Shown here: positions 17,365 through 44,775 of the stretch, piece after piece
Position numbering within the stretch: position 1 is the stretch's first letter
Layout of the letters: each line of letters starts with the position of its first letter
Assembly: GCA_000995415.1 (NCBI GenBank)
Contig: LCEX01000002.1
Coordinates: forward strand, 19,232 to 83,231
Direction: 5' to 3'
Source of the DNA: Candidatus Gottesmanbacteria bacterium GW2011_GWC1_43_10
GTDB taxonomy: Bacteria; Patescibacteriota; Microgenomatia; UBA10105
DNA length: 64,000 nt
Program-made: the position numbers and the translations under genes
The notes under the pieces: model-generated
Databases searched by the model: none
The model's input: the letters and a program-made list of their open reading frames with translations, nothing else
Told to the model about the DNA's origin: nothing

Positions 17365-20229
17365 ATGAAGTTCTTATTTAGAATCGGTTCACTACTATTA
17401 CACATAGTTGCTTTAGTTTTGGTAGGTATTTCCTTCTGGCCAGTAGCAACTTGGTATTTCAACCATCGGCCTATCCTGGGAGTAGATTTTTATAATACAG
17501 TGACTTTTGTCAGGTTCCTCAAGGAAAACTTGGAAATTTTGCCCCGGGGATATTTATATTTTTGGTTTGCTGGTTCACCCATCGATACGGTTCAAGTTTT
17601 GAGCTGGTTTTATCCGATGGCATTTGTCGCCAAGTTTTATCCACTGATTGAAACGGTGAAATTTTTTGCGCTCGCTGGTTTTGGCGGGTTACTTTTTTTC
17701 CTGTATCTTACGGCTTATCGGTTGAGTCGCAATCATTTACTGTCGGCATTGATTACGGCTATGGTTGCTATGAGCGCCAATATGTACGGTTCCCTTACCT
17801 GGGGTGGGAGTTTACCTTACTTTTTAAATCAATTGTATTTTCCACTCATGTTGTGGCTGATGGCCAGTTATTTAGCTTCTGGTAACTCACGGTGGTACTG
17901 GGCGGGGGTACTGGTTTTGGGCTTGGCTTATTTAGGTCATTTGGCCAATGCCGGGGCCTTTGTGTTTCCGGCCGCCGCCGCGCCCCTTTTCTTCGGGATG
18001 CGGGCAAGGAGGGTAAAAATCGGCCAAAGAATCGGCGAAGTCATAGTGCTTTTTCTTGGTGGTTATTTGCTGGCTTATCGGGTGACACAGGGTTTCTTAA
18101 GCGGTCTTATCGTGCATTTTTTGGAGGGCAAAATCTTAAATCCCTATGGCTTGGGTGCAACCGTGGGTAAAATCGGTATTAGTAAAGAAGGCATTTCAGT
18201 CAGCGGAGATCAGACCCTGATTACTGTAGAACGCAGCCATTTCGCGGTTTTATTCAGTGATACAAATAAGTTGTTGTTTTGGTTGATAGCAGTGGCAGTG
18301 GGAGCATTGGTCTTGGGTTTTTTGTTGGATCGACACAAAAAAAGGATTTTTTCAATACTGCCCTGGGTGATTTTGGCAGGTTATTCAGTGGTGCATGTAC
18401 TGGCTAATGCCTACGGGTTTCCGATTTTGCCACAGGCTTGGTATCGGGCTTTTTGGCATTTTCCGATTTCCCTGGGAGTGGCGATTGCAGCAAGCGCGGG
18501 TTATTTACACAGCGCATTTACTTCGCGGAGCAAATTTGGTGGACAAATAGCCTTCTCAATTATTACGCTTGCCGCAATTGGCGGACTTATTATGCTCCAA
18601 AGTGGAGGAGTTGCCCAAAATACAATCAGCCTGCTTGAACAAAAATCATCGCCTGCGAGCGCTCATCCAGAAGCAATTAATTTGGTCAGAAACCAAGCCG
18701 AACTAGATGAGTTAAAATCGAAACTTATCCCAACTTGGCTGGATATAACTAATAAAAACTACCGTTTGTATACCTCGGATGCTCAGGTAAACGTGTGGTG
18801 GAATGCCCTCTTTGATTTGCCGTTGGTTCGGGGATATTTGGATCCGCCGGTGGGCACCGGGTTCCAAGGAAACCACTTTTTACTTGATCAAGCCATAGCC
18901 GGGGATGGATTGGTGACCAACTTTAAATATAGTGAAAGTGCAGCCAGACAAATGGCTCTTTACTATATAGATTGGTATGGAGTCAGATATGCCGAAGGCG
19001 GGCATTTATCCAAATCTCCCAACAAAGGCCCATCAAGTTATTTAACTGATTTGCTGGTGCAAACGGAAGATGTCGAAATCCCTGGGGCGTATCTTTTGTA
19101 TGAAACCAAGTCAGGTAAACCAGAAGTCAGGGAAGATGTGGGACAATTTTTGAAGTATTATAAATTTACCGACCAGATAGTTTCGCCTATATTATCCGGA
19201 TCAAATGCTCCAGTCGTCGTGTGTATGTGTGATTGGGCAGCTTATGAAAGTTTGACCAAAATTTTGTCACTGCACAATCTAAATTCTAGATTTTTGGTGA
19301 CTTTGTTTGCTGATAAAAACATTGATGATTTTACTAGAGATGAACTACGTCAATTTGACGGATTGATCTTATCCAACTATCGTTACAAACAAAAAAATCG
19401 GGTCTTTACTTTGCTTACAGATTATGTCGAGGCTGGAGGCAAACTATTCATAGATACGGGAGGTGAAACCCCCGAGGGACAAAGCAATAATATTCCAGAA
19501 CTTCTGCCATTTCGCTCCACCGAGCGCCGGGGGTTAGGAAAAGAATGGGATTTGACACCAACAGCCGCAGACATATTTTCCGGCATTGATCTGACGGCAC
19601 TAGCACCCCCGGTGTTTAGTGAAGCCGAGTGGAAATTTTCCTATCCGACAAGTGATGTAAAATCTGACGCCAAAATATTACTTCGGCAAAAGGGTAAACC
19701 GATTTTGATTTCTACCAAATTTGGTCAGGGAATCGTTTTGTGGAGCGGAATGAATTTGGCTTATCACGTACAGTATTATACCAATCAAGTTGAAAGCCAA
19801 CTTTACATAAATTTGCTAAAGCAAATGTTGTCATTATCCGAACGCCCGCCGGTTTTGGGGTCAGCGCAGTTTAAAAACGCCCGACAAGTCAATTTTTCAC
19901 CCGAAGGTACTACGCGGGGAATTTTATTTAAGGAGGAGTTTTTTGACAACTGGCAAGTAAAAATAGATGGGCGTCGGGTCAAGGCCTATGCTGCTGGTCC
20001 ATCTTTCCCAGGATTTATATATGTGCCTTCGACCCAAGCTGGTCAGGTGAGTTTTACCTACAATGGCAATAGTCGCGATTATATGATTTGGTTTATGTCG
20101 AGCTTGATGATAATCATTCTTTTAGATCTATCATTTTTTCATGGAGTACTTATTGGTGTTCACATATCACACTTGGCCCAAAAGTCTCAAAAATGGATGG
20201 GTAAGTGGTGGGAAAAAGAAGAAGAATAA
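17365..20229 (+). CDS. Large (~950 aa) polytopic membrane protein, paralog 1 of an uncharacterised GT-C-like family
   Basis: N-terminal half has about 13 TM helices and the C-terminal ~480 aa are soluble. Conserved block YRLYTSDAQVNVWWNALFDLPLVRGYLDPPV lies just after the last TM. Ends in a W-rich acidic tail (WMGKWWEKEEE). Confidence 0.6.
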   Translation: MKFLFRIGSLLLHIVALVLVGISFWPVATWYFNHRPILGVDFYNTVTFVRFLKENLEILPRGYLYFWFAGSPIDTVQVLSWFYPMAFVAKFYPLIETVKFFALAGFGGLLFFLYLTAYRLSRNHLLSALITAMVAMSANMYGSLTWGGSLPYFLNQLYFPLMLWLMASYLASGNSRWYWAGVLVLGLAYLGHLANAGAFVFPAAAAPLFFGMRARRVKIGQRIGEVIVLFLGGYLLAYRVTQGFLSGLIVHFLEGKILNPYGLGATVGKIGISKEGISVSGDQTLITVERSHFAVLFSDTNKLLFWLIAVAVGALVLGFLLDRHKKRIFSILPWVILAGYSVVHVLANAYGFPILPQAWYRAFWHFPISLGVAIAASAGYLHSAFTSRSKFGGQIAFSIITLAAIGGLIMLQSGGVAQNTISLLEQKSSPASAHPEAINLVRNQAELDELKSKLIPTWLDITNKNYRLYTSDAQVNVWWNALFDLPLVRGYLDPPVGTGFQGNHFLLDQAIAGDGLVTNFKYSESAARQMALYYIDWYGVRYAEGGHLSKSPNKGPSSYLTDLLVQTEDVEIPGAYLLYETKSGKPEVREDVGQFLKYYKFTDQIVSPILSGSNAPVVVCMCDWAAYESLTKILSLHNLNSRFLVTLFADKNIDDFTRDELRQFDGLILSNYRYKQKNRVFTLLTDYVEAGGKLFIDTGGETPEGQSNNIPELLPFRSTERRGLGKEWDLTPTAADIFSGIDLTALAPPVFSEAEWKFSYPTSDVKSDAKILLRQKGKPILISTKFGQGIVLWSGMNLAYHVQYYTNQVESQLYINLLKQMLSLSERPPVLGSAQFKNARQVNFSPEGTTRGILFKEEFFDNWQVKIDGRRVKAYAAGPSFPGFIYVPSTQAGQVSFTYNGNSRDYMIWFMSSLMIIILLDLSFFHGVLIGVHISHLAQKSQKWMGKWWEKEEE

Positions 20230-20232
20230 AAG

Positions 20233-20264
20233 TAGCTTAGTTGCTTAGTTACTTAGAAGTTTAG
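20233..20264 (+). repeat. 8-nt periodic CTTAG repeat in the spacer between the tandem paralogs
   Basis: AGCTTAGT-TGCTTAGT-TACTTAGA-AGTTTAGA. Confidence 0.5.
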
Positions 20265-20277
20265 AATTTTGAAGTTA

Positions 20278-23127
20278 ATGAAAAAACTACTATTAGCCTT
20301 TTTGTTATTCGTTTTGCACCTTAGCGCCGTAAGTATCATTATTGGCGCTTTCTGGCCGATAGGCAAATGGTACTTTGATGCCAAACCCTTATGGGGGGTT
20401 GATTTTTATTACACGGCCTCCCTGGTCAATTCTCTTAAACAAAATTTCATATTTCCGGCAGCCGGTTGGTTTTCTGCCTGGTTTAGCGGTTGGCCCTGGA
20501 TCACCGGGTTTCCGATTTTGCACGCATATTTGATTGTACCATTGACTTATTTTTTCGAAGTCAATCAAGCAATCAAAATCTGGATGTTGGTAAGTTTGAT
20601 TTTATACTTTTTGGGTGCCTATGCTCTATTTTATGTTTTATCCCGCAATTGGGTAATTGCCGTATTACTTAGCCTTGGGGCCATATTTTCCGTCGGAGTA
20701 TATGGATCTCTCATGTGGGGAGGAAGTTTACCCAGTCACGCTACACAAATGTTTTTTCCGTGGGTAATCTTATTCGTCGTGCTATTTTTAACCACCAGAA
20801 AAAGAGCCGCCTTGTGGTTGGCAATTTTACTTACTGGTCTTTCGATTTGGGGGCATCCGCAGATAGCGATTGCTTATATCTATCCGACTGCAGGCTTATT
20901 GTTTCTATTTTTGGCACAAGGGTTGAAAATTTGGCACAGGCTGAAGTCTCTGATCGTTTTTGTTTTAGTTTCTTTTGTTTTTGGTCTGCCGCTGTTTTAT
21001 TTTACGCTTGGCGACGCTCTAAAAACTTTGATCGTGACCAATTCGACAGAGGTAGCTACATCTACGGCGAAAGTTGATGCAACTGCCTCTGCCGAAATTG
21101 CCGCGTTTCACGGGGCTCAACCCTGGCGAATCATTCAGGATACCAATTTGACCTTTTACTATTTATTGGCAGGGGCAACAGTTTTTTTTGTTCTGGTACT
21201 TATACTACGTCGGCAACCGAAAATGTTATTTGAATCGTTGCCGTTTCTGGTGGTAGCAATTTTTTATGTAGTGTATGTATGGATATTTGCTTATGGAATA
21301 TCAATTTATCATGGAGGTTGGTACCGGTTGTTTTGGGCTACACCAATATGGCTGGGTATGGTAGTGGCGAGCTTGTGGGGAACGGCCCAAAAACATCTTT
21401 ACGAGAAAGCAACTGGGTTTTGGAAGATTTTTCATATCTTAATTCCAGTTGCCAGCTTGGTTATTTTAGGAGCTGGTGCAATCAGCTTAAACACGACCTC
21501 GCAGGGTCTGAAAGAAAAAATCGTGGCACGGAGTAACACCTCTTCGGCTTTTCCAGATGTCTTGAATTTACGTACCGGCAGCGGGTTTACGGCGTTGACT
21601 TACGATTTGGTACCAACTTGGTTAGACGGAAACCGACGCGACTATCGCCTCTATTCTGCTGATCAAACGGTGAACATCTGGTGGAGCGCGGTTTTTGCAA
21701 TGCCTCTGGCGCGAGGTTACTTTGATCCGCCGGTAAACGCCCAAAACCGAGGTTACTTTTTCTGGCTGGACGCGGCTCTAAATAAAGCTACTAACGGTGA
21801 TGATGAACTAGTGGGAGCATTTCATTATCCGCCTGAAACAGCTTTAAATAATACCCTGTTTTTGGTGGATTGGTATGGGGTGAAGTTTTTTGAAGCCGGG
21901 CATGCCGGACCCACAGCTTACGCACCACTACCCACCAGTTTTTCGCAAAAAACCTATATGGCAAATGAGGTAGACTTGCCTTTCAACACTGAAAAATACA
22001 ATCAAGGAAATCAGGCACTTCACTTTTACGAACTTAAAGATGAGAAGGTGAGTCCGTTGCTTATTGGTACTAATGCCGTGACTTTGGGGATAGTAGCCAC
22101 GGACCAAGGGTATGAAACTGTAGTTCGGGCTCTCGCCGACAGTAATTTGGGAGTCAGCCAACTTATTCCGGTGAAATTAGGCAGCGATTTAAACCAGTTG
22201 TCAGAAAAAACACTGGCGGCGATGGACGGACTGCTACTATATGATTATCATTATTCCAACCAACAAAGTGCATTCAGACAAATAGTCGAATACGTCAAGG
22301 GCGGCAAGCAGCTATTTATAGATTCAGGGACTGAAACCAGAGAAGCCAATTCACAAAACTTGCCGGAAGTATTTCCAATTGAAACGAGTATCCGAAAGCA
22401 GCTGGGTGAGGCCTGGGATTTTACAGAGGTGGATGATGGCTTGACCCGGGGCATCGATTTGACGAGTTTTGATCCCCCGCTTTTTGACCAAACAGCCTGG
22501 AATTTTTCTTATCCGCCTGATTCGAGCGCAGTCAGAACCGGATCCAAGGTTTTATTAAAAAACCATGGGCAACCGGTTTTAATGTCGCTGCCTCTGGGGT
22601 CAGGAGAGGTGATTTGGAGCGGAATGAATCTGTCTTATCATGTCATCCGTTTCCACAACCGGCAGGAAGTAGCTTTTTACAAAAACATCATTACCAAAAT
22701 AGTTAAGCTAGGTAGTCAGGACAAGATTGAATCTGATGCTGAATTTATAAATCCCGAAACTAGGCGGATCCGAATCTCGCAAAGTAAGGGCGTTTTACTT
22801 AAGGAAGAAGCGTATCCGGGTTGGCGGGCGACTATTCGTACCGATAAAGCCAAAGAATCGGCAAAAATTTATCCTGTCGGCCCCAGTTACCCGGGGTTTA
22901 TGTATATTCGTATCCCGACCCGTTTTCAAAACATTCCCAGCGAAGTCACATTTCACTATTCTGGGTCAACCACTACCTGGGGTTTGGTAGGTGTCACGTT
23001 ATTAATTGGTATCACCATTCTTGACGAAGTAGTTCTAAAAGGAGCGATTTTGGGTCGTCTATGTAGGAAAGTTTGGCAAACAATAAATTTCGAAACTAAA
23101 AAATGGTGGGGAAAGGAAGATGAGTAA
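20278..23127 (+). CDS. Large polytopic membrane protein, paralog 2 (tandem duplicate)
   Basis: Same architecture and motifs as paralog 1 (GSLMWGGSLPS; YRLYSADQTVNIWWSAVFAMPLARGYFDPPV; tail KKWWGKEDE). Start is the ATG at 20278 (TTG at 20269 in track). Confidence 0.6.
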   Translation: MKKLLLAFLLFVLHLSAVSIIIGAFWPIGKWYFDAKPLWGVDFYYTASLVNSLKQNFIFPAAGWFSAWFSGWPWITGFPILHAYLIVPLTYFFEVNQAIKIWMLVSLILYFLGAYALFYVLSRNWVIAVLLSLGAIFSVGVYGSLMWGGSLPSHATQMFFPWVILFVVLFLTTRKRAALWLAILLTGLSIWGHPQIAIAYIYPTAGLLFLFLAQGLKIWHRLKSLIVFVLVSFVFGLPLFYFTLGDALKTLIVTNSTEVATSTAKVDATASAEIAAFHGAQPWRIIQDTNLTFYYLLAGATVFFVLVLILRRQPKMLFESLPFLVVAIFYVVYVWIFAYGISIYHGGWYRLFWATPIWLGMVVASLWGTAQKHLYEKATGFWKIFHILIPVASLVILGAGAISLNTTSQGLKEKIVARSNTSSAFPDVLNLRTGSGFTALTYDLVPTWLDGNRRDYRLYSADQTVNIWWSAVFAMPLARGYFDPPVNAQNRGYFFWLDAALNKATNGDDELVGAFHYPPETALNNTLFLVDWYGVKFFEAGHAGPTAYAPLPTSFSQKTYMANEVDLPFNTEKYNQGNQALHFYELKDEKVSPLLIGTNAVTLGIVATDQGYETVVRALADSNLGVSQLIPVKLGSDLNQLSEKTLAAMDGLLLYDYHYSNQQSAFRQIVEYVKGGKQLFIDSGTETREANSQNLPEVFPIETSIRKQLGEAWDFTEVDDGLTRGIDLTSFDPPLFDQTAWNFSYPPDSSAVRTGSKVLLKNHGQPVLMSLPLGSGEVIWSGMNLSYHVIRFHNRQEVAFYKNIITKIVKLGSQDKIESDAEFINPETRRIRISQSKGVLLKEEAYPGWRATIRTDKAKESAKIYPVGPSYPGFMYIRIPTRFQNIPSEVTFHYSGSTTTWGLVGVTLLIGITILDEVVLKGAILGRLCRKVWQTINFETKKWWGKEDE

Positions 23128-23128
23128 A

Positions 23129-25486
23129 TTAGGTAAATTTGGTTATTTTACACACCTCTATTTCAAATTTTCTACCTATCTTTTGCCAATCAAATCGGTA
23201 GGATTCGGTCAAAGCGGTCTTGGCCAATCTCTGTCGGATTGATTCTTGGGTTAATAAATTTATTACCTTCTTGGCTACCAAATCTGGTTGTTTGAGAGGA
23301 AGAGCCATAAAACCTTGTTTATATACCGAACCAAATATAGACAAATCATAACAGATGACCGGGAGTCCGGCCGCCATCGCTTCTGCAACTACCAAGCCAA
23401 ATCCTGCCTCATGATCCAGGAATAGCAACAATTTTGATGCTTTGATATATTGGTAGAGGTTGATTTGGCTCTTTAGATAACCTGTAAAAAACACATTTTT
23501 TTCTAAACCCGTGAGTTTTACTTGCCGTTGGACTTGAGTTTGGATTTCGCGAGTAGCATAACCAACAATAACTAGACGTGCTTGCGGGAGAACTCGCGTG
23601 ACTTTTTGCCAGACATCGAGGGCATCAAATATACCTTTATGCGGCTGCAATCTACCGATGACTATGGCATCAGAGCTTAACTTCCGGTAGATAGGGGTAG
23701 CCTTGATTTGATCTAAATCAACTCCGCCAAAAGCCAATCGGATGTTTTTTCGGGAGAACCCTTTTTTTGTTAGTTTCGGGATAAGTGTAGGATTGTCTAC
23801 CAACAAAAGATCAGCTTGTTTCAAAAGAAGAAGACTGAGCTGTTGCAAAAAATATGATCCAGTGTTTATCCACCACTGACCTTCACGTTGAAATGGCGTC
23901 TGGATGAAATGAAAGAACCGCGCTGTCCAGGGTTGGATATTCGTTTGATGATAAAGGAAAGCCGGGAGTGTATCCGATATCATGTCCGTACTGGTATGGA
24001 GGATGTCAAAAGACGGTAACTTTAGTAAATAAAAATAGGCGAGAAAACTGCGGATTAAATACGCTATAAATAGACGAAACGGTCGGTCTTGATTGTCAAA
24101 CCAAGTTGTGGGGAGGATGACGAAGCGCAAGTAAGGACTTGCGATATGGACTTTTTGCCAATGGTATAGTCCATGTTGCGGTAGAATTACGGTTATCCTA
24201 ACCTTAGCTGATAAATGTTTTATAGTCTGCATGAGTACTTGGTCTCCGCCGCCGATGGCTTGGGTTGAGACGAAAGCGTTGGCTAAACATACAATTTTCG
24301 TTTGTGTTAAATATACCGAAATAGATTTCAAAACAGTTTGAGCGTGGGTTTCCCATGAATATTTGCGGGCTGTGGCAGCAGCTTTTTTTCCCATAGTAAG
24401 GGCTTCAGTTGGATGTTGATACAAATACTTGATGTATTTAACAAATTGATTAGTTTTCCCATCGTCAGGGAAAAACCCTTCCCGGCCGTGAGTAAACAAT
24501 TCGGTCACTCCAGATCCTCGGGGAATGATGATGGGCAATCCATAAGCGGCCATTTCCAAGCCGGACATGCCGAAAGCTTCAAAGTTGGGATGGACCCAGA
24601 CAAAGCTTTTTTGAGCAATTTCCTGTAAGTCAGTTTCCGCCTGTGCGGAAAGCAACGAAATTCTTTTTGCCAAACCTTGTGCTTTTACTTGTGCTAAAAA
24701 ATCCGCGCGGTCCTCAATATTTGTCCAACTGCCGGCTAAAAGGATTTTCAACCGGGGGATTTTTCGGGCGAGGGTCATAAATAAAAAAGGATTTTTGGCC
24801 GATTCCCACCTGGTAAAACCCAAGATATATCGGGATTGCTTGCGGGGCGCAATATCTAAAATGGCGCATCCGGGATAAATGATTAAGGGATCAATCTGGT
24901 AATGAGTTTTTATAAATTTTTGATGGACCCGGGATGAGGTAGCTACCAAAGCTGCGGTAAGTAAAAAATCGCGTTCGTATTTTTTGATCAGAGATTTGAT
25001 AAATGGAGATAACCAGCGTATTGGACTTGAACCATAAACTTTTTCCCAGATATAAAGCATCGGGTCCCAAATAAAAGCTAAGTAAGGGATCTTGAGTCGT
25101 AAGCTGACCGCCCGTGCAGTGATACACGTGGTCGTCCCGTGGCTCACAATAAAATCCAGATTTTTAAGTATTTGATATCGCCCGGCAAAAAATGGGTTTA
25201 ACAGATGGAGGGTAGTCAAAAAAGAAAAGTAAGGGATGCGCCAAGCTCTTTTGAAGGGCCAGGGATTGAAGTCAGATAGGTAAATTACTTCCAAGCCCGT
25301 TGATAAATCCTGATACTGATAACTTATGTCCAGCTTGACCAGAACGAATAGTCTGACGTCATGCCCCAGCTTTTTCAGGTATTGAGCTTCTTGGATGGCT
25401 GATTTTTGGACTCCACCGGGTACAAGCTGGTCGACCAAAATGCCAATTTTATATTTTTTCATAGTTTGGCATAAATATCTCCCCAC
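23129..25486 (-). CDS. Tandem double-GT4 glycosyltransferase (two GT-B modules in one 785-aa polypeptide)
   Basis: Module 1 N-terminus KIGILVDQLVPGGVQK. Module 2 runs from about residue 395 (KIVCLANAFVSTQAIGGGDQ) to the C-terminal E-x7-E GFGLVVAEAMAAGLPVICYD. Confidence 0.7.
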   Translation of the reverse strand: MGRYLCQTMKKYKIGILVDQLVPGGVQKSAIQEAQYLKKLGHDVRLFVLVKLDISYQYQDLSTGLEVIYLSDFNPWPFKRAWRIPYFSFLTTLHLLNPFFAGRYQILKNLDFIVSHGTTTCITARAVSLRLKIPYLAFIWDPMLYIWEKVYGSSPIRWLSPFIKSLIKKYERDFLLTAALVATSSRVHQKFIKTHYQIDPLIIYPGCAILDIAPRKQSRYILGFTRWESAKNPFLFMTLARKIPRLKILLAGSWTNIEDRADFLAQVKAQGLAKRISLLSAQAETDLQEIAQKSFVWVHPNFEAFGMSGLEMAAYGLPIIIPRGSGVTELFTHGREGFFPDDGKTNQFVKYIKYLYQHPTEALTMGKKAAATARKYSWETHAQTVLKSISVYLTQTKIVCLANAFVSTQAIGGGDQVLMQTIKHLSAKVRITVILPQHGLYHWQKVHIASPYLRFVILPTTWFDNQDRPFRLFIAYLIRSFLAYFYLLKLPSFDILHTSTDMISDTLPAFLYHQTNIQPWTARFFHFIQTPFQREGQWWINTGSYFLQQLSLLLLKQADLLLVDNPTLIPKLTKKGFSRKNIRLAFGGVDLDQIKATPIYRKLSSDAIVIGRLQPHKGIFDALDVWQKVTRVLPQARLVIVGYATREIQTQVQRQVKLTGLEKNVFFTGYLKSQINLYQYIKASKLLLFLDHEAGFGLVVAEAMAAGLPVICYDLSIFGSVYKQGFMALPLKQPDLVAKKVINLLTQESIRQRLAKTALTESYRFDWQKIGRKFEIEVCKITKFT

Positions 25487-26241
25487 AAGTATCGGTCAGT
25501 TTGTGCGGATAAGTGTTTGGACAGTGATCGATAGTCAAGCCACCGAGGTAAAAGAAAATGCATCGAATCATAAGCGGTATAGTTGAAGTGGACTTGGCCC
25601 AGGGAATCAAGATACCGAAGACTTTTGAAAGTGTTATTCAGTAGTTCTCGATGAAATTCAAAAGAAATTAAAGGTAAAGAAGTTGTCAGTCCATGTAGCA
25701 CATTAGTTTCATACCCTTCGACATCGATTTTGCAAAATGCGGGTTGGCCATATTTTTGGATCAGAGTGTTCAGGGTGACGAGCGGAATCTTTTGCACCCG
25801 GGTCCAGCGAAAATCTTTGGCGAAGCGGCTATGGGTCACCCAACTTTTACTCATGGTGGTGATAGCCGGTTCTTGTTCACAAATAGCTAAAGAACCCCAG
25901 CCGTTTTTTGCTGAAGCAGCATAGGGGATGATGGCGACACGGGGATCATTGGCAAATTTGTGTCGCAATTCGGCAAGGGAAGCTGTTGCTGGTTCAATAG
26001 CTACTACTCTTGCGCCTAGTTTTAGGAATATGCTGGTTTTTTCGCCAAAACAAGCGCCCACATCAAAAACTAGGTCATTAGGACGGACAAATTGCCCGAA
26101 AAAATTTTGTTCCCGGCGGCGGCGCAAAAAATGCAATTTATCAAAGGTACGCCAGCCCCATCGTACAACCGGGTAAAAGCGAGTAGCTTGAATTGTTTTT
26201 ATAAACCACCATTTCATATTCATTTTTGGCCTAAAATCCAA
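25459..26241 (-). CDS. FkbM-family methyltransferase
   Basis: VFDVGACFGEKT...VVAIEP and KIDVEGYE motifs. Confidence 0.75.
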   Translation of the reverse strand: MDFRPKMNMKWWFIKTIQATRFYPVVRWGWRTFDKLHFLRRRREQNFFGQFVRPNDLVFDVGACFGEKTSIFLKLGARVVAIEPATASLAELRHKFANDPRVAIIPYAASAKNGWGSLAICEQEPAITTMSKSWVTHSRFAKDFRWTRVQKIPLVTLNTLIQKYGQPAFCKIDVEGYETNVLHGLTTSLPLISFEFHRELLNNTFKSLRYLDSLGQVHFNYTAYDSMHFLLPRWLDYRSLSKHLSAQTDRYLWGDIYAKL

Positions 26242-26942
26242 AAACTGTCGCGCCAGGTCGAAAGAGGCGAAGAAATCATCAGATAATTCAAAAGGTTTTT
26301 CAACGGCATGGGAAGTTTACGGAAAAAGACCGGTAGATACCAATCAAAAGGCACGTTATAGGCAGTCGGTAATCTGCAGGTGACAGATCCAAACCCGTTG
26401 AGTTTAAGTAAGTTTGCTAGGGAACTTGGAGTAAAAAACTGGATATGCGAGGGATCACTGTATCCAAACCAGCGCTTTCCCAGGATTAAGCGTAGCGGAG
26501 AAACAAAGTTCGGGGTAATTAAAAAGATATAACCGCGCGGTTTTAAAATACGCCAACTTGCAGAAATGAACTGTTGTGATTGGTAGGGCGTGAGATGTTC
26601 AATCACCGAAATCGAGGTGATCAAATCAAAAGTGGATTTTATAAACGGCAGGCGACTGGCTGAGGCACGAACGATATTTTTCGGTGGGTTTATTTTGCGC
26701 GCGAGTTTTAGAGCTGCAGTTTGATTGTCACAACCTTGGGCTCGGAAACCTGATAGATTCAAAAAACGGACCAGGCGGCCGGTGCCGCAACCGACATCCA
26801 AAACAGACTTGAGTCGGTGTTTGCGCATCAGAAGTTTAACCGATTCGGCAATATGTAGATCAAGGTGGTCGCGTTCATGGAAGTATTGCGGATCGTATAG
26901 AGCTGGTTTTTTTTTCATAATATTATTCAAATTAGGTAGCAT
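26220..26942 (-). CDS. Class I SAM-dependent methyltransferase
   Basis: VLDVGCGTGRLVRFL motif I and LKPRGYIFLITPN. Confidence 0.75.
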   Translation of the reverse strand: MLPNLNNIMKKKPALYDPQYFHERDHLDLHIAESVKLLMRKHRLKSVLDVGCGTGRLVRFLNLSGFRAQGCDNQTAALKLARKINPPKNIVRASASRLPFIKSTFDLITSISVIEHLTPYQSQQFISASWRILKPRGYIFLITPNFVSPLRLILGKRWFGYSDPSHIQFFTPSSLANLLKLNGFGSVTCRLPTAYNVPFDWYLPVFFRKLPMPLKNLLNYLMISSPLSTWRDSFWILGQK

Positions 26943-26996
26943 CCGTTAATAACATGATTACTATAATATTGAAAAATGTGGCACAAAGGGCCGTAA

Positions 26997-28121
26997 TCAT
27001 CCGCCCTGGGCGGACGAACGAGCCTTTAGCTTCCTGTATCCATAAAAAGCTGCTCCCAAGGCGTTGGATTCATCTCCGGGGTTAGGAGCTATGTGCATAT
27101 CCTTCACTGATTGTAGTTTAGCGATTTTTTGATTGGCCCGAGTATTTAAGAAGACACCTCCAGCTAACGCTAATTCATGAATTTTAGTTTGGGTTACTGC
27201 ATTTTTGACCCAAGTCGTCAAACTATCTTCTAATATTTTTTGGGCAGCACAAGCTACGATATCTGGATTTAATCCAGCCAACTTCTCGCGTAAATAAAAA
27301 TCAAAATGACGCGAGGGGATTTGAGATTTAAACTGTAGCCCTTCTACCCAGATTAATTTTTGCAAAAGCTTAATGATTTTTTGGAAGTTGTGGCGAGCTG
27401 TAGCACGGGCCAGTTGCATGACTCGGGCTTCTTCTTTGTGCGGAATAAATCCTAAAAAAGCAGTGATACTGGCATAGAAAAGACCCAAAGAATGAGTATG
27501 TGAAGTCTGACTAAGGCAGTGAAATTGCCCATTTTCCACTATATAAACTGCAGCCGAAGTGCCATCCCCGGCACCGTCACATGTTAAAACCAAAGTTGGG
27601 TTGGAAGAGAGGTGGGGACGGGAAAAATAAGCAGTATAGGCGTGACACAAATGATGGTCGAGGCGGATGATTTTTTTTGGGTCAAGTTTGAGACTGGTTG
27701 CGATATCCCGTATTTGTTGCTCTTGGTTTTGTGGTTGAAAGGCGGCATAGTACAACCTGCGTCCGGTATCGGTGACATAATTAAACCAGGAAAACTGGTA
27801 TTCCCAGCGAGGCGCTAAGTCACGCCATTTGCGTAAGAGCTTGGGTGTCGTGTCCGGTAGTTCCACGCTTTGGGCAGTCGTAAAATGCGGATAAGGATCG
27901 ATGTAAGACAGACAGATCAGATTAAGTTCATGAATAGCGATCCCGGCAATCCGGCAGCAATAATGGATCGCGTTTTTGGGGAAGCCGGATTGATTTTTGA
28001 TTTTGGTAAAGTGGTCTTCACGTGCCTTGGCTACGATTTTTCCGTTTTTAAGCAAGGCGGCTCCCGCACCCAACGCTTCGTTGAGACCCAAGACATAAAT
28101 AGGTTTAGATTTTTTCCACAT
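26997..28121 (-). CDS. Carbamoyltransferase N-terminal-domain protein (NodU/CmcH family; C-terminal domain absent)
   Basis: MWKKSKPIYVLGLNEALGAGAALLKNGKIVAKAREDHFTKIKNQSGFP matches the family N-terminus and the HHLCHAYTAYF His motif. Only ~375 aa, against 573 aa for the full-length paralog at 43054. Internal ATG at 28121 chosen, because the track start would overlap the upstream GT4. Confidence 0.65.
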   Translation of the reverse strand: MWKKSKPIYVLGLNEALGAGAALLKNGKIVAKAREDHFTKIKNQSGFPKNAIHYCCRIAGIAIHELNLICLSYIDPYPHFTTAQSVELPDTTPKLLRKWRDLAPRWEYQFSWFNYVTDTGRRLYYAAFQPQNQEQQIRDIATSLKLDPKKIIRLDHHLCHAYTAYFSRPHLSSNPTLVLTCDGAGDGTSAAVYIVENGQFHCLSQTSHTHSLGLFYASITAFLGFIPHKEEARVMQLARATARHNFQKIIKLLQKLIWVEGLQFKSQIPSRHFDFYLREKLAGLNPDIVACAAQKILEDSLTTWVKNAVTQTKIHELALAGGVFLNTRANQKIAKLQSVKDMHIAPNPGDESNALGAAFYGYRKLKARSSAQGG

Positions 28122-29244
28122 GTTTTTTGATAACTTGGGTAAAAATGTCAATATACTTATCGGCAATTTTGGACCAATCAAAGATGTGTTGGGCACGTTG
28201 GTAAGCTCGGATCCCCATTCTACGGCGCAAGTCGGGTTTGTCAATCAGGCGTTTAGTAAAAAATAACAACTCGGAAAAATCGCTGGCCACATATCCGGTT
28301 TGGCCGGAAATGATGACTTCCGCCGCCGCCGCAAAATTTAGAGCTACTGCAGATTTACTAAAGCTCGCGGCTTCAATGATAGGTAACCCCAAAAACAGGT
28401 ATTTATCAGCAGTGATATAAATATCTGTTTGTTGATACAGCTTAATTAGTTTTGCATCACCAGGCGAAACGATTATTTGTACTTTAGGATCAAGGGTTTT
28501 CAGGTACTTATAATATTGTGATTGTGGCGCAGAGCCTACCAAAGTCAATTTCAAGCCGGGATAAACTATTACCAATTTTTTATACATACCAATCAACAGT
28601 TCAAACTGCTTATAAGGAGTAATGCGACTCACCGATAACAGATTAACAGTTGATTTATTTTTCCGATAATCAGATTTGGATAAGTTCACTGCCTGCAAAT
28701 CAGTTCCCAAATAAATATACGGACACTTCAAGTGGTAGAGACGAAAAGCTTCGAGACTTGCAAAGCGGGAAATCGCAATTATTTGATGAGGTAGATGAAT
28801 TATTAACCATGTTTTTAGATAAATTAAGAAATTTAAGAATGGTTCTAACAGCCACAATACACGTCGTAAATTCATAAAATGCTCGCCCAGGACATTAAAC
28901 TGTGTACCATAATATGTTTCAATAAGGGGTATACGAGTTGACCAAGCAGCGATGATAAATGTCAAGATAGTATGGGCGCTAATCACATCGGGTTGATATT
29001 TCATCAGCTGTTGTCTGACTTTAACTAAATCTATGAATTTTCCTACGATTGGAAATGGGGTTTGGAAAGTCAGTCTGACGTCGACTCCGGCAGTTTTAAG
29101 AAGTTTAATCGTGTTTTGGTCTTGGTTAGTTGAATAACTTATAAAAACGACGGAATGCTTTTTGGCTAGCGCTCGCGCCAAGTCAATTGGAGCCCGCGCC
29201 CCGGATTTGAGGTTGCAAATAAGACCGAGAACTGCGATTTTCAT
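28105..29244 (-). CDS. GT4 (group 1) glycosyltransferase
   Basis: MKIAVLGLI N-terminus and E-x7-E region LGLPIIEAASFSKSAVALNFAAAAE. Confidence 0.75.
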   Translation of the reverse strand: MKIAVLGLICNLKSGARAPIDLARALAKKHSVVFISYSTNQDQNTIKLLKTAGVDVRLTFQTPFPIVGKFIDLVKVRQQLMKYQPDVISAHTILTFIIAAWSTRIPLIETYYGTQFNVLGEHFMNLRRVLWLLEPFLNFLIYLKTWLIIHLPHQIIAISRFASLEAFRLYHLKCPYIYLGTDLQAVNLSKSDYRKNKSTVNLLSVSRITPYKQFELLIGMYKKLVIVYPGLKLTLVGSAPQSQYYKYLKTLDPKVQIIVSPGDAKLIKLYQQTDIYITADKYLFLGLPIIEAASFSKSAVALNFAAAAEVIISGQTGYVASDFSELLFFTKRLIDKPDLRRRMGIRAYQRAQHIFDWSKIADKYIDIFTQVIKKHVEKI

Positions 29245-30653
29245 TTTTGGATCAAATATAAAATTTTTAAGTTTCCAATGTGCCAACTTTGACTTGTTTT
29301 ATAGTCTGCAAAGATTTTGGTTAGTGCCAATTCTTTTTGTGATGCAATGGTCCATTTTTCAGTATCTACTAACCACAAACTTTTCTCCCGCGGCGGAAAC
29401 AAATATTGCCCGCCAATAAATTTACGCGTTGCAAAAGACAAAGGATTGGGAGTGATTAAATAATTGGCCAGCCGGTTTTGAGTATAAAAGTCAAATGAAT
29501 AATACGTCGAAACCGAAGTATGTACCACAACCGCAGGTTGCTTGTCGATCAGTGACTTCACGAGTTGTAATTTTTCTCCAGCGAAAAAGGGATCAAAAAT
29601 TTGGATTAAGGTCACTACTATAAGAAGCAATAAAAAGACTTTGGTATAAAACGGATTCGCTAAGTCCAGACCGCGGGCGATGATCAGGAAATACAGTGGA
29701 CTAAAAATTGCAAAAGCTTTTGGCGAAAAAGCCGGGACAAAAAGTGAACCAGCTGTTAAAAGAAATAACGGAAAAACTAAGATTAACATCGGTTTGTGGG
29801 AATAGAAAAAACCTTTGACAAAAAAGACACCCGCAAAGAACACGGCGGCTACAAAAATAAGTTGGATAGATGTTGGTAGATTTGGAAACGCGCGTAATGT
29901 AACCTCGCCGATACCGCCCAAAATAGGTGACACCAAACTTGCTGGGAGCGATAGCCAAGTGGGCGGACAGGCACAAGGACTGTGCGGCGTGATTAGGGCC
30001 GCAGCCAGCCACGGAGACCAGATAAGAAAAATCAGAGATAAAAGCTGTGTCCATTTAATTGGAGTTAGTTTTTTGGGTTCGGTGAAAACCAGGATCGTTA
30101 ACGGCAAGAATACTAGTAAGATATAATATTGGGTATACAAACCCAGGATTGACCAGAGGACAAAAAAAACTAGATTTTTTCGGTTGACGGTGGTAGTCAG
30201 ATCAAAAAACGAGTGGATGATTCCGACTAAAAACAGTCCGGCCAGAGCATGGAGACGAGCTTCAGTCGCTAGATAAATTTGCAGCGGAGAAATCGCGAGC
30301 AGGATGGTAGTGACCACGGCAACTCGGTTCGGAAATAATTTTTTGCCAATCAAAAAGGTCAACCAAATAGTAGCCAGGTTAAAAACCAGAGATGGCAAAC
30401 GCAAAACCAACGGATTTTTGCTCAAAAATAGCAAAAAATGAATTAATAAATAATATAGTGGCGGATTGCTATCGGTTAAGACCGCCGGCCAGATTTGGAC
30501 AAAAGGCAATTTAGCGATTTCGTAGGTAAAAGCCTCATCAAACCAAAATGCTCGCACAGGTAAATAAAGCAGACGTAATCCCAAAGCTAGTCCTAAAATT
30601 AGAAATATAGTTATTGTTGGGAGCGAAAGTGATTTGGATAGGCGAGTTTTCAT
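29241..30653 (-). CDS. GT-C glycosyltransferase, ArnT/PMT (GT39/GT83)-like
   Basis: 470 aa and highly hydrophobic, with a classic first-loop motif RAFWFDEAFTYEIAK. Confidence 0.7.
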   Translation of the reverse strand: MKTRLSKSLSLPTITIFLILGLALGLRLLYLPVRAFWFDEAFTYEIAKLPFVQIWPAVLTDSNPPLYYLLIHFLLFLSKNPLVLRLPSLVFNLATIWLTFLIGKKLFPNRVAVVTTILLAISPLQIYLATEARLHALAGLFLVGIIHSFFDLTTTVNRKNLVFFVLWSILGLYTQYYILLVFLPLTILVFTEPKKLTPIKWTQLLSLIFLIWSPWLAAALITPHSPCACPPTWLSLPASLVSPILGGIGEVTLRAFPNLPTSIQLIFVAAVFFAGVFFVKGFFYSHKPMLILVFPLFLLTAGSLFVPAFSPKAFAIFSPLYFLIIARGLDLANPFYTKVFLLLLIVVTLIQIFDPFFAGEKLQLVKSLIDKQPAVVVHTSVSTYYSFDFYTQNRLANYLITPNPLSFATRKFIGGQYLFPPREKSLWLVDTEKWTIASQKELALTKIFADYKTSQSWHIGNLKILYLIQK

Positions 30654-34139: not shown

Positions 34140-36869
34140 TTAATAATTTAAATGCTCGTCGGTTTGTAAAGTTGAGATGCGCTTAGATGCCAATTTGGAT
34201 AAAGGTAAAGAGATGAAACTAGATAAATTATGCGTTAGTTTTGGAAAAAGAATCAGCACAGAAATAACTACCAAAGACAGCAAATTTATATAAAACCAAA
34301 TCCAGTTCCCGAATCCTCCGGTAAATTCCAATTGCAAGTGTATCTGATTTGGAGTTTGGGGAATAGGGATATACATGAAATTTAAACCGGCCTCAAACAC
34401 TGGTGCTGCCGTATCATTTATTTTAGCTTGCCATCCTGGATGGAAATTTTCTTTAAAGTAAACTCCATTGAATTTTTTTCCTGTTATTTCGATCTTTTCA
34501 CTATTGTAGCGGATGACTTGGGCTTGAGGATACAAATTGGGAATGATCACGAGAGTTTCTAAAATGTTTGCAAACAGACTGGTTTCCTCTTGATTTAAAT
34601 ACTCTACAAGATGAAACGGTAAATTCAATCCACTCACAAATAGTCGACCCTTTTCAATTGGCGCATCCACCAAGACCGGTTCCTCATCCTGCCTAAGCAG
34701 TACTGTAGTGTTGGCATTCGACTTGCTTGGATCGAAAGTAGAATATTTCCAGGGCTGGTTTTGGTAAAGGAGCGGCGAAAATTGCTGGGGATCAATTTGC
34801 TTGACTAATTTGGAGTCAGGGTCAATTTGGAGATTCCAGGCAGAAGCACTTTTTTCTTTAACTCGAGCTAATGGCAAGTCGCTTGGGAACTTGTGTGATA
34901 AATTTGGGTTGGACCCGAGTTCAAGAAAAACCTTACCGCCACTTTTAAGATAAGGGACCAATAGTTTTAAATCGCCTTGAAAACGATATAAAAATAAAGA
35001 GGGGAATGTGGCAAGTATGGTTGGCGATAGTTTGCTAAGAGAAGTCGGGCCCTTTACAGGAATAAGTTTACTGGAATTCAGGTTTGTCAATGCCAGCGCC
35101 CGGATAAAAGTCGAGTAACCAGAATCATCACCAATAAACAAGATCGGCAAAGCTGTGGTCGGTTCGATGATAGGTGAAGTAAACTGCGGTTTTAGTTGAC
35201 TGATACGATTAGAATATTTTGCATAAAGCTCTTCCTTCTGCAAGTCAGTATGGTATTTATCGTTCACTACAAAACCTATGCCAAAAGCATCGAATAAAAA
35301 CCGGGCCCGGTTTTCGATGAGTTGGGGTGGGACATTTTGGTTGGCATCAACACTTAAGGCGGTTTGCAAATAATAAGTCCAGTCACTTGATTTGGCGTTG
35401 AAGCCACTGGTATATCCCCGTGTGACTGGGATATCACTTATCAGGTTCCACCAGTGGGTGAGAGTGGCGTCATTTGAGTCAAGTCGGTATTGCGGGTTTT
35501 CTGGTGTCAACCAGGCTGGTAATTGCTCGTTTTTATAACTTATATCCCGATATTCGGGCAAGATAATTTTATGGATATAATTAGGAGCAGCATTGGGTGG
35601 ATCTGTCAAAAATTTAGGTATCAGGCTGGCGCTGGTTAGGGAGTTGACTTGCCAGGGCAAAACAAACGGCAAGATAGAAATAAAAGCTGTAGACATCAGC
35701 CACCCGAAGTAGCGATTGGCCCGGGTAAGGAGTTTGAAATTCTGAGCTGCAAGTGTTAGTAGTAGCACCAAAACTGCCCAGAACATCCGGCGGGGAAACA
35801 AGGAATTTGCCAGCGAATTTAAAAGATGTAAATAAGCCCCAAACGGATAAAGTAAAAGCACAACGGATGCAAATAAAAGTGGCATGGTGGAACGAATGCT
35901 TAATGATCGTTTGAAGATACGATAAACTAATTTTGCTCCCAAAACAAAAAGCAAACTAAGTCCTGAGACAATAAACGGTAACCAACCTAGCCACCGCTCC
36001 AAATGGAAAGGATATATGCCCCAACACTGCGAATTATCACATGTTGTAGCAATTTCACTAAAGGACATCTGATTAAAAAATGGCCAGAGACCTAAAGTTC
36101 CGCTGGCGCTGGTAGTAAAAATGAAGATTAATATTTCGGATACCCGATGGGCGATTCGACTGGTAGAAACAATCAAACTTCTGGTAACTAAAACTACGCT
36201 TACCGGTAGTATCACAAATAATAAACTCATTGCCGGATGGTGAATCAGACTTAGACCGCAAATTACTGAGGAAATAAGTAAGTTACGGTATGATTTTGGC
36301 AGGTCAAAATGGCGATATAAAAATAAAAGTGACAGTGGTAAATAAAACTGCATGGATGAGCCGGTGATCATCCCGCCGGAAGTAAGTTGGTAATACACTG
36401 CTTGTGATGTCAAGCCAATGAGCGTCAGTCCGAGCGCAACAAAATAATTTTTACTGATTTGTAAGTAGAGTAAATATGAAAAAAGATGGAACAGTAAAAT
36501 AGCAATTACCGAATACCAATTCAGCGCTTGAAGTGGAGTCGCGAAAAAAAGCAATGGTGCCATGAGATAAAAAGTCAGCCACTGATAGCCCCCGATGAGG
36601 GGACCGCCCCCGTTCCAAAAAGCCAGCCAGCCTGAAGGAGGTAGTGGCAGGTGCTGGGCAAAATACTTAGCATAGGTAAGTCCGGTATAGTAATCACCCC
36701 CGATGGGTGAAGGTAAATGTAAGTACCAATTTGCCAAAATTTGCCACCACAAATAAGTAATCAAACCGAGTGAAATAAATAGTATAATTAGAGACAGAAA
36801 TGGCAACAGAATTTTTTTTAAGTTGAGATTTGACAGATCCATAACCTTGGCAGCCAAAGAACTAATCAC
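34140..36869 (-). CDS. Large polytopic membrane protein, paralog 3 of the ~950-aa family
   Basis: 909 aa with the same architecture. The conserved post-TM block YRLDSNDATLTHWWNLISDIPVTRGY matches the 17365 and 20278 paralogs, and there is a C-terminal TM. Confidence 0.55.
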   Translation of the reverse strand: MISSLAAKVMDLSNLNLKKILLPFLSLIILFISLGLITYLWWQILANWYLHLPSPIGGDYYTGLTYAKYFAQHLPLPPSGWLAFWNGGGPLIGGYQWLTFYLMAPLLFFATPLQALNWYSVIAILLFHLFSYLLYLQISKNYFVALGLTLIGLTSQAVYYQLTSGGMITGSSMQFYLPLSLLFLYRHFDLPKSYRNLLISSVICGLSLIHHPAMSLLFVILPVSVVLVTRSLIVSTSRIAHRVSEILIFIFTTSASGTLGLWPFFNQMSFSEIATTCDNSQCWGIYPFHLERWLGWLPFIVSGLSLLFVLGAKLVYRIFKRSLSIRSTMPLLFASVVLLLYPFGAYLHLLNSLANSLFPRRMFWAVLVLLLTLAAQNFKLLTRANRYFGWLMSTAFISILPFVLPWQVNSLTSASLIPKFLTDPPNAAPNYIHKIILPEYRDISYKNEQLPAWLTPENPQYRLDSNDATLTHWWNLISDIPVTRGYTSGFNAKSSDWTYYLQTALSVDANQNVPPQLIENRARFLFDAFGIGFVVNDKYHTDLQKEELYAKYSNRISQLKPQFTSPIIEPTTALPILFIGDDSGYSTFIRALALTNLNSSKLIPVKGPTSLSKLSPTILATFPSLFLYRFQGDLKLLVPYLKSGGKVFLELGSNPNLSHKFPSDLPLARVKEKSASAWNLQIDPDSKLVKQIDPQQFSPLLYQNQPWKYSTFDPSKSNANTTVLLRQDEEPVLVDAPIEKGRLFVSGLNLPFHLVEYLNQEETSLFANILETLVIIPNLYPQAQVIRYNSEKIEITGKKFNGVYFKENFHPGWQAKINDTAAPVFEAGLNFMYIPIPQTPNQIHLQLEFTGGFGNWIWFYINLLSLVVISVLILFPKLTHNLSSFISLPLSKLASKRISTLQTDEHLNY

Positions 36870-42675: not shown

Positions 42676-42824
42676 AAAAAAGCTGATTGAGGTACTAGAT
42701 TTGAGCTGAAATTGGTGAAAAATCTAACTGCTAGGTTTTATTACAATTGAGTTTTCCAGAATTGCAAGGCAGGAACAGATATTATATGATCGGGAGATCA
42801 AAATTTGACCGAGAGAATAATTTT

Positions 42825-43053: not shown

Positions 43054-44775
43054 ATGTATATCTTAGGAATTTCCTGTTATTTCCATGATGCTGCGGCGGT
43101 TCTACTCAAAGACGGCAAAATCATCGCCGCCATTGAAGAAGAGCGGCTAAGCCGTCACAAGCACGATGCCGGATTTCCAAGTCGTGCTATTGACTTCGTT
43201 TTAGAACAAACAGGGATTAAGCCGCAAAACCTGGATTATGTCGTGTTCTATGAAAAACCGTTTCGCAAGTTGCAGCGAATTTTTTATTCGACTATTGTTA
43301 ATTATCCTAAATCCGCCGCTGCCTTTGCCGAAGCAATGCGCGTTTGGTTGACCCAAAAACTTTGGATCAAACAGGAAATTGCCACTCATTTGGGGATCGC
43401 TACCCAAAAAATTCTTTTCACCCAACACCATTTAGCTCATGCAGCGAGTTGTTTTTACCCGTCGCCGTTTGTTGAGGCGGCCATTTTGACTGTAGATGGC
43501 GTTGGTGAATGGACAACTACATCAACTGGAATTGGTATCGGTAATCATATTGAATTAACCAAAGAAATCAGATTTCCCCAATCTCTGGGACTTTTATATT
43601 CAGCATTTACTGCCTGGTTGGGTTTTGAAGTCAACGAAGGTGAGTGGAAGGTGATGGGGCTGGCTCCATACGGACGACCCCGTTATGTGAATAAAATTTG
43701 GAAAATGGTGAAACTAAATCCGGATGGCAGTTTCTTTCTTGATTTAGACTATTTTGCGTTTCAGTATTCGGATACCCAATCATTCTCAGACAAGTTTGTG
43801 AGTTTGTTTGGTAAACCCATTGAAAGGAATCAGGCGCATTTGATTTCCGAAAAAGGGGCGGATGTGGCTGCCAGTATTCAGGTGGTGACTGAAGAGATTT
43901 TATTGAATATGGCAAAAAAATTACAGCAGGAAACGCAGTCAAAAAATTTATGCCTGGCCGGTGGAGTGGCTTTAAATTCAGTTGCTAACTACAGACTGCT
44001 AAAAGAGAGTGGATTTAGTCATATTTTCGTACAGCCGGCAGCAGGTGATTCAGGCGCAGCTTTGGGAGCAGCCCTTTATGTGTATCATCAAGTCACTCGC
44101 GATAAAAGCCGTTTTTTACAAAGTCATAGTTATCTGGGAATTGAATTTGCAAATCCGGAGATTAAACGGTTTTTGAGAACTCAAGCCATTGATTATCACT
44201 TTTTTCCGACACCAAAATTGCTGGATTATATCGCAGGGCAAATCGCCCGGGGCCGCGTCGTGGGTTGGATGCAAGGAAAATGCGAATGGGGACCGCGGGC
44301 TTTGGGGGCAAGGAGTATTTTAGCTGATGCCCGAAATCCCAAAATGAAAGATATTATAAATAGCAAGGTCAAGTTTCGTGAAGCTTTTCGTCCGTTTGCT
44401 CCATCAGTGCTGGCTGAAAAGGCGCATTTGGTTTTTGATCTACCCCAAAACACCAGAGACTGGTGGCCACTTAGATACATGCTGTATGTAGTACCGGTAA
44501 GGACAACTTGGCGGAAAAAAGTTCCGGCGATCACCCATATTGATCACACGGCCAGACCACAGCTGGTTGACCGCAAAATAAATCCCCTATATCACAAGCT
44601 GATCCGCAAGTTTTATCAAAAAACCGGGGTACCTCTGGTTTTAAATACTTCATTTAACCTCAAAGGCGAACCCATCGTAGCGACTCCGACGGACGCCTAT
44701 TCCACATTTTTACGTTCCGGGATTGATATTTTGGTGATGGGAAATTACGTCTGCGAAAAAGAAAGAAATAAATAA
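43054..44775 (+). CDS. Carbamoyltransferase (NodU/CmcH/NovN family), full length
   Basis: MYILGISCYFHDAAAVLLKDGKIIAAIEEERLSRHKHDAGFP family N-terminus; HHLAHAASCFY; C-terminal domain present (573 aa). Confidence 0.9.
   Translation: MYILGISCYFHDAAAVLLKDGKIIAAIEEERLSRHKHDAGFPSRAIDFVLEQTGIKPQNLDYVVFYEKPFRKLQRIFYSTIVNYPKSAAAFAEAMRVWLTQKLWIKQEIATHLGIATQKILFTQHHLAHAASCFYPSPFVEAAILTVDGVGEWTTTSTGIGIGNHIELTKEIRFPQSLGLLYSAFTAWLGFEVNEGEWKVMGLAPYGRPRYVNKIWKMVKLNPDGSFFLDLDYFAFQYSDTQSFSDKFVSLFGKPIERNQAHLISEKGADVAASIQVVTEEILLNMAKKLQQETQSKNLCLAGGVALNSVANYRLLKESGFSHIFVQPAAGDSGAALGAALYVYHQVTRDKSRFLQSHSYLGIEFANPEIKRFLRTQAIDYHFFPTPKLLDYIAGQIARGRVVGWMQGKCEWGPRALGARSILADARNPKMKDIINSKVKFREAFRPFAPSVLAEKAHLVFDLPQNTRDWWPLRYMLYVVPVRTTWRKKVPAITHIDHTARPQLVDRKINPLYHKLIRKFYQKTGVPLVLNTSFNLKGEPIVATPTDAYSTFLRSGIDILVMGNYVCEKERNK

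Follow-up and report, generated by a model that had tools for sequence, protein, structure and literature searches.

The gene at 26997..28121 (minus strand), in a window of 64,000 nucleotides from Candidatus Gottesmanbacteria bacterium GW2011_GWC1_43_10 (assembly GCA_000995415.1, contig LCEX01000002.1, positions 19,232 to 83,231 of the forward strand), encodes only the Kae1-like N domain (Carbam_trans_N) of a class III O-carbamoyltransferase; the YrdC-like C domain was lost by a clean deletion at the domain boundary, not by a frameshift. Four lineages of such N-only proteins were found in total, and in one of them the short form is a maintained protein. It is tentatively proposed, with nearly an even chance of being right, that the short protein of the window is a functional transferase module that would be fed carbamoyl-adenylate (carbamoyl-AMP) in trans, as TsaD is by TsaC.

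The open reading frame (ORF) of the short gene runs from ATG 28121 to TGA 26999-26997 on the minus strand and encodes 374 amino acids (aa) with the frame intact; the assignment was made from the ORF and its translation, Pfam, an AlphaFold2 (AF2) model and Foldseek. An alternative TTG start at 28244 would cross the upstream GT4 glycosyltransferase gene, and ATG 28121 was preferred because the orthologs start at the ATG position. Carbam_trans_N (PF02543) was matched with E 2.2e-33 over profile positions 11-345 of 346; no Pfam match to Carbam_trans_C (PF16861, YrdC-like) was obtained in the 374-aa protein. In the AF2 model (predicted local distance difference test, pLDDT, 94.7; predicted template modelling score, pTM, 0.93) the chain stops ~10 residues past the last helix of the domain, H350-369. 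The top Foldseek matches of the model were VtdB, TobZ, GdmN and NovN (E 1e-18 to 2.5e-20; template modelling score, TM, 0.69-0.75), and TsaB-TsaD (YeaZ-YgjD) complexes were also among the matches. Against the TsaD/Kae1 models TIGR03723 and TIGR00329 the short protein scored 26-30 bits, below the cut-offs of 296 and 208; against the NodU equivalog NF041651 (cut-off 1000 bits) it scored 15 bits and the full-length protein encoded at 43054 of the window 172 bits, both below. The sequence-only reading had described a protein reduced to the N domain with its His motif kept, the C domain being present in a full-length enzyme elsewhere in the window; all of this was borne out (Carbam_trans_N without Carbam_trans_C; H156-H157-x-x-H160 present; Pfam N and C domains together in the 43054 gene only, 15 kb away). 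Its further description of a truncated form beside a paralog stands as regards the lost C domain and fails as regards descent, the short protein being no truncated copy of the 43054 protein (27% identity, distant clades).

The identical short protein was found in four deposits (KKS42062, KKS56140, KKS82461 and HCM37106) and on 25 contigs; one of these deposits is annotated 'Carbamoyltransferase' (Candidatus Gottesmanbacteria bacterium GW2011_GWB1_43_11). An independent ENA contig (L004) showed 99.97% identity across the gene. No premature stop, frameshift or remnant was found in the intact 374-codon ORF. On a scaffold of the same strain (L005, 852-1889) the short gene carries an in-frame gap of 29 aa and nearby glycosyltransferase genes are fragmented; the DNA is otherwise 99-100% identical, and these are probably scaffold gaps or an assembly variant, not a real allele.

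A remnant of the C domain was sought in two ways. Searching by tblastn with the C domain of the 43054 paralog gave no remnant, and hmmsearch --max (filters off) with a C-domain profile made from the 22 full-length orthologs nearest to the short protein, run in six frames over the whole 64-kb window, gave the 43054 gene as sole match; the frameshifted C-terminal remnant for which the sequence-only reading had allowed was found by neither search. Because no C-domain signal appeared in the spacer or in six frames, the objection that the gene is a frameshifted pseudogene fails. The spacer in question (26943..26996, 54 bp, unstranded) separates the stop codon from the methyltransferase gene and contains no C-domain remnant and no repeat; in full-length orthologs the carbamoyltransferase and methyltransferase genes overlap by 8 bp, against this 54-bp gap in the window. 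When a repeat or mobile-element scar was looked for at the deletion point, chance 9-12-mers only were found. No YrdC/Sua5 domain besides that of the 43054 gene was found in the window. A stable GC-rich hairpin, GUCCGCCC-AGG-GCGGAU (26997-27020, minus strand), spans the stop codon of the short gene; it was considered as a canonical terminator and rejected, having no T-tract.

The short protein is most closely related to 22 full-length enzymes (P0002-P0023; 575-593 aa, both domains, 44-55% identity). In the neighbour-joining (NJ) tree the short gene is nested within this full-length clade, of which it forms the longest terminal branch, and the 43054 protein falls in a distant clade. In other Microgenomates (three full-length loci were checked: L001 with P0003, from the clade of the short gene; L009 with P0126 and L010 with P0136, from the sister clade nearest the second N-only lineage) a full-length enzyme occupies the same slot as the short gene, in the order PMT_2 (GT-C), GT4, carbamoyltransferase, class I methyltransferase, double GT4 and two ~950-aa proteins. 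The window has the same order over 30653..20269, and differs in that the carbamoyltransferase slot holds the short gene and that there is an extra FkbM methyltransferase. Within the block the N domain is the best-conserved protein, with 56% identity to its L001 ortholog, compared with 36-54% for four neighbours. By tree position and gene order, then, the short gene is an ortholog of the full-length enzyme whose C domain was lost in this lineage.

The metal site of the short protein is complete by alignment. The iron site of GdmN consists of two His and two Asp (H133, H137, D156 and D333), and the general-base His is H27 in GdmN and H14 in TobZ (PMC9633730). The equivalent of H133/H137 is the HxxxH motif H156-H157-L-C-H160 (27642..27656, minus strand, as are all positions within the gene), which does not vary in an alignment of 70 sequences and reaches 99-100% conservation among 218 full-length enzymes; the third ligand is D182 (27576..27578; GdmN D156) in CDGAGD, and the fourth is D350 (27072..27074; GdmN D333) in NPGDESNALGAA. 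The position of the general-base His is taken by L17 (28071..28073). Hence the expectation of the sequence-only reading that the catalytic residues of the N domain would be present held for the four metal ligands and not for the general base. In the 22 full-length orthologs that position is L, S, I or Q and never His, and the loop lacks His in 40 of the 218 full-length relatives; because all 22 orthologs are also without it, the missing His is read from the alignment as a clade trait and not as a sign of decay. In place of the His, the short protein and the 22 orthologs share an invariant Glu in 'L-G-x-N-E-A', a motif that resembles G-I-E-T-S of TsaD, and the clade may use a different catalytic base. 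Counted over 44 family-conserved N-domain columns (conserved in at least 85% of the 218 full-length enzymes), the short protein keeps 38; the changes are E36D, R37H, R40K, K233R, G236Q and Y240A.

Besides the gene of the window, the N-only lineages comprise P0029/P0033/P0124 (lineage 2; 374-377 aa; loci L002, L003 and L008), P0234 (359 aa; locus L091) and P0326 (373 aa; locus L092, two samples), the last two each followed by a convergent gene. Each lineage has its own stop codon, and all four truncations coincide exactly with the domain boundary. On sequence relationships the C domain has been lost at least four times independently, because the nearest relatives of each lineage are full-length proteins and none is nearest to another N-only lineage. 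Eight further entries of N-only length were tried as additional cases and rejected, being fragments or full-length genes that had been disrupted (the representative search gave seven of them; the eighth is P0146). Disruptions among the relatives took the form of an in-frame TAA (L006) or of frameshifts (L007 and L060). In L006 (1541-1549) a carbamoyltransferase is broken by the single in-frame TAA into separate ORFs for its N part (P0146, 355 aa) and its C part; the stop stands where the GDE-S-NA motif has its Ser/Thr codon, and P0146 retains all canonical motifs missing from true N-only proteins. Either a nonsense mutation has made this a pseudogene or the stop is a sequencing error.

Lineage 2 keeps the general-base His and gave a ratio of nonsynonymous to synonymous substitution rates (dN/dS) of 0.21-0.24 in all three pairs (Fisher p<1e-15); for comparison, in the same loci the methyltransferase gave 0.17-0.19 and the adjacent full-length carbamoyltransferase 0.11, about half the N-only value. 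The N-only form is a maintained protein in this lineage. In two loci of the lineage, L003 and L008, the N-only gene is directly preceded by one for a full-length carbamoyltransferase, an arrangement to be set beside the 1 of 80 unrelated loci (±10 kb flanks) in which two carbamoyltransferases occurred. The tandem pairs (L003 4245-7134; L008 294-3205), from two samples, consist of a full-length gene of 587 or 592 aa followed by the N-only gene of 377 aa; the overlap of the two ORFs measures 8 nt in L003 and 1 nt in L008, and the N-only gene overlaps the downstream methyltransferase gene by 4 nt.

The four lineages share a pattern of change. Unchanged in every one of them are 30 of the 44 conserved columns, including H156, H160, D182 and D350, and the nucleotide-site motifs GGV..N and P..GD are strictly kept in all four. 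Replacements of R40, G236 and Y240 occur in 4/4 lineages (permutation P<5e-6), and of R37, present in 218/218 full-length enzymes, in 3/4; position 236 is G or A only in the 218 full-length enzymes. Y232, P239, the clade motif R285-F286-D287 and V327 are likewise changed in all four. In the short gene itself these changes appear as a degenerate 'EERFxR' motif (E35-D36-H37-F38-T39-K40; 28002..28019); as E-A-R-V-M-Q-L-A-R-A in place of 'E-Y-K-V-M-G-L-A-P-Y', with G236 and Y240 replaced (27402..27431); as N285-P286-D287 for the clade motif 'RFD', replaced also in the other three lineages (27261..27269); and as N326-T327-R328 where the orthologs have N-V-K (27138..27146), residue 327 being T or S in all four N-only lineages. 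When two lineages were compared, the P0029 lineage had 7 changed positions, of which 6 were changed in the short protein too (hypergeometric P=2e-4), and the eight rejected fragments or disrupted genes retain every signature motif. The changes in the N-only proteins are, as far as alignments can tell, site-specific convergent relaxation and not general decay; the residues concerned may once have formed a docking surface, or an adenylate channel, toward the lost domain.

In characterised full-length enzymes the YrdC-like domain makes carbamoyl-AMP from carbamoyl phosphate and ATP, and the adenylate passes through a channel of 15-20 Å to the Kae1-like domain, which then transfers the carbamoyl group onto a hydroxyl (PMC6022934; PMC10484737); in the N6-threonylcarbamoyladenosine (t6A) system of tRNA the two steps are placed on separate proteins, TsaC and TsaD (PMC6594144; PMC10484737). 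It is proposed that, once the adenylate-forming domain had been deleted from the enzyme in the conserved Microgenomates glycan-cluster slot, the short protein would still bind carbamoyl-AMP at its metal site and would perform the second step only, carbamoylating a sugar hydroxyl on the glycan of the cluster. The adenylate would come in trans from the YrdC-like domain of the 43054 enzyme, by diffusion or in a complex, and one adenylating domain would then serve two acceptor specificities on that glycan. The 43054 enzyme is a candidate supplier; it holds the only YrdC-like domain of the window, 15 kb from the short gene in the same glycan island. A wider reading, held with slightly more reserve, is that stand-alone Kae1-like modules would be a recurrent, selected architecture with a common signature (a non-small residue at 236 together with loss of Y240, R37 and R40), in effect a natural two-protein class III enzyme, in which a full-length enzyme would supply carbamoyl-AMP from its YrdC-like domain to a separate transferase that has another acceptor specificity; the relaxed residues would then show where the inter-domain docking surface or adenylate channel of full-length enzymes lies.

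The systems nearest to this proposal differ from it in definite respects. With the class III enzymes TobZ, VtdB, GdmN, NovN, NodU and SxtI the short protein shares the N-domain fold, the Pfam family and the four metal ligands, and, as in their settings, its gene stands in a sugar-modification cluster beside a methyltransferase; unlike them it is without the whole YrdC-like domain and the general-base His, and, compared with full-length members, it has G236, Y240, R37 and R40 replaced. TsaB (YeaZ) is likewise a shortened relative within the superfamily and works only with its catalytic partner; it has lost the metal and nucleotide site, which the short protein retains. The pair of TsaC (YrdC/Sua5) and TsaD (Kae1/Qri7) follows the same proposed logic, an adenylate from one protein being used by another (PMC6594144; PMC10484737), and TsaD shares the fold of the short protein (TM ~0.57). 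Unlike in the t6A system, the proposed donor here is carbamoyl-AMP and not threonylcarbamoyl-AMP (TC-AMP), the acceptor a glycan and not tRNA, and the supplier a full-length two-domain enzyme and not a stand-alone YrdC protein. The sxtI gene of Lyngbya wollei (1071 bp) is also a natural N-terminal remnant (~357 aa) without the C-domain motif; it carries internal deletions, is reported to have been functionally replaced by an acyltransferase and was judged most probably inactive (PMC3037375). Unlike that remnant, the short ORF ends at the domain boundary, a full-length enzyme is present in the island, and purifying selection acts in a parallel lineage.

Several results count against a trans-fed transferase. 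The variants of the short gene are all at least 99.6% identical and too close for a dN/dS value on the gene itself; the co-occurrence of a full-length partner could be checked in 2/4 lineages, the contigs of P0234 and P0326 being too short; and the N-only lineages are rare and shallow, with no deep N-only family, a GTDB genome scan having given only distant relatives (25-34% identity), among which clean N-only genes and tandem carbamoyltransferases were rare. The short protein is without the general-base His, and it has lost 12 of the 71 positions invariant in the 22 full-length orthologs, each of which loses 0-5; four of the 12 (E36D, R37H, K233R and G236Q) belong to the family-wide core, and the losses were not significantly biased away from family-wide core columns (p=0.35). 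Along the sequence the 12 positions cluster only marginally (P=0.04). Carbamoyl-AMP is described as labile and as channelled internally in full-length enzymes (PMC6022934; PMC10484737), so that its free diffusion is possibly inefficient. The 12 losses and the sporadic, shallow occurrence of N-only forms, with the long terminal branch, the existence of disrupted family members (L006, L007 and L060) and the precedent of the L. wollei truncation (PMC3037375), speak for a non-functional relic: the syntenic enzyme would have become redundant to another full-length carbamoyltransferase, lost its C domain and begun to decay, the frame being still open through a recent deletion or through constraints of operon polarity. 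This is the most serious of the alternatives and is nonetheless thought unlikely. The ORF extends over 1,125 bp without internal stop or frameshift, and in a simulation of substitutions alone, neutral change sufficient for the 12 losses left it stop-free with P ~0.014; the four metal ligands and 38 of the 44 columns are retained; the same few columns are changed in four independent lineages instead of a spread of columns. To these are added the dN/dS of the parallel lineage, an N domain better conserved than the neighbouring genes, and a truncation at the exact domain boundary four times over.

A non-catalytic partner, binding the glycan or the full-length enzyme and tuning its specificity or stability as TsaB does on TsaD, would suit the absent general base, the change of near-universal R37 and G236, the TsaB-TsaD complexes among the structural matches and the adjacency to a full-length enzyme in lineage 2; it is considered improbable, since the metal ligands, GGV..N and P..GD are kept in all four lineages and would be needless for a pure scaffold, the His is missing as well from 22 full-length orthologs with well-conserved C domains, and lineage 2 retains it. 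Sequence does not separate a pseudo-enzyme from work in trans; the evidence nevertheless leans to the trans-fed transferase, because of purifying selection in the parallel lineage, convergent relaxation and adjacency to the full-length enzyme. A new activity or donor, whether another acyl- or carbamoyl-adenylate (e.g., TC-AMP of TsaC type) or the reverse reaction as a decarbamoylase, is given little credence: the protein has kept its adenylate-binding core and lost the contacts to its own adenylating domain, and TsaD-like domains can use diffusible TC-AMP on non-tRNA acceptors (PMC10484737), but nothing specific points to such a change, no second YrdC/Sua5 domain was found in the window, the TsaD-model scores (26-30 bits) lie far from their cut-offs (208-296), and the conserved carbamoyltransferase slot favours the same chemistry. 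That the gene is a sequencing or assembly artefact, or a frameshifted pseudogene with its C domain downstream, was suggested by the origin of the sequence in a metagenome-assembled genome and by the small gaps of scaffold L005; this reading was refuted by the identical protein in four deposited genomes and on 25 contigs, the independent contig of 99.97% identity and the six-frame search, the next 723 bp being moreover a complete methyltransferase gene, and it is scarcely credible.

If the module is active, carbamoyl-AMP would be handed between separate proteins of O-carbamoylation, like TC-AMP in the t6A system and unlike the internal channelling of the characterised enzymes; a natural minimal transferase would be available for engineering, in which acceptor-specific modules are combined with one adenylating domain; and a second carbamoylation would be placed on a surface glycan of an uncultivated bacterium of the candidate phyla radiation (CPR). 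If it is only a relic, the case is one of ordinary domain loss after redundancy. Regardless of activity, an annotation rule follows: genuine N-only proteins have a residue other than G/A at 236 and are without Y240, R37 and R40, while contig-end fragments of full-length genes retain G/A236, Y240, R37 and R40. The signature also predicts that the corresponding residues of TobZ-type enzymes serve the inter-domain hand-over.

The full-length class III O-carbamoyltransferase (43054..44775, plus strand; 573 aa; Kae1-like and YrdC-like domains; Pfam N 1e-84, C 2e-69) retains the H-D general-base motif. It is preceded by an ORF of 101 aa with a hydrophobic stretch (42747-43052, plus strand; no Pfam or NCBIfam match), which ends 1 bp before it, and is directly followed by a Ser/Thr-rich protein of 1054 aa (44859-48023, plus strand) with immunoglobulin (Ig)-like and CarboxypepD_reg-like stretches, a candidate surface protein that may serve the glycosylation island as substrate.

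The syntenic block around the short gene, all on the minus strand, contains a PMT_2 (GT-C) glycosyltransferase (29241..30653); a GT4 glycosyltransferase (28105..29286), which shares 17 nt at its 3' end with the start of the short gene, so that the two are placed in one operon; a class I S-adenosylmethionine (SAM) methyltransferase (26220..26942; 54% identity to its L001 ortholog), which is the conserved downstream partner in L001, L009 and L010 and in lineage 2 (L002, L003 and L008); and a double GT4 glycosyltransferase of 785 aa (23129..25486). Between the last two lies a methyltransferase of the FkbM family (25459-26241, minus strand), which is absent from that position in L001 and L010 and looks like a lineage-specific addition to the cluster. 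From position 1 to ~48,000 the window forms a single large glycan island, with a flippase, three PMT_2 proteins, many GT2/GT4 glycosyltransferases, about eight methyltransferases, DegT, an acetyltransferase, RmlD and the two carbamoyltransferases. Three large proteins of 954, 952 and 909 aa (17365-23127, plus strand, and 34140-36869, minus strand), with no Pfam family or at most a sub-threshold match to PTPS_related, may be membrane proteins of glycan assembly; those of 954 and 952 aa are syntenic with the cluster in L010 (957 and 962 aa). Defence-like genes adjoin the island at 48091-51705: an AAA_14/DUF4143 ATPase, and a 738-aa protein in which an AEP-TOTE primase-like domain is fused to a ResIII/DEAD helicase (TOTE conflict system domain).

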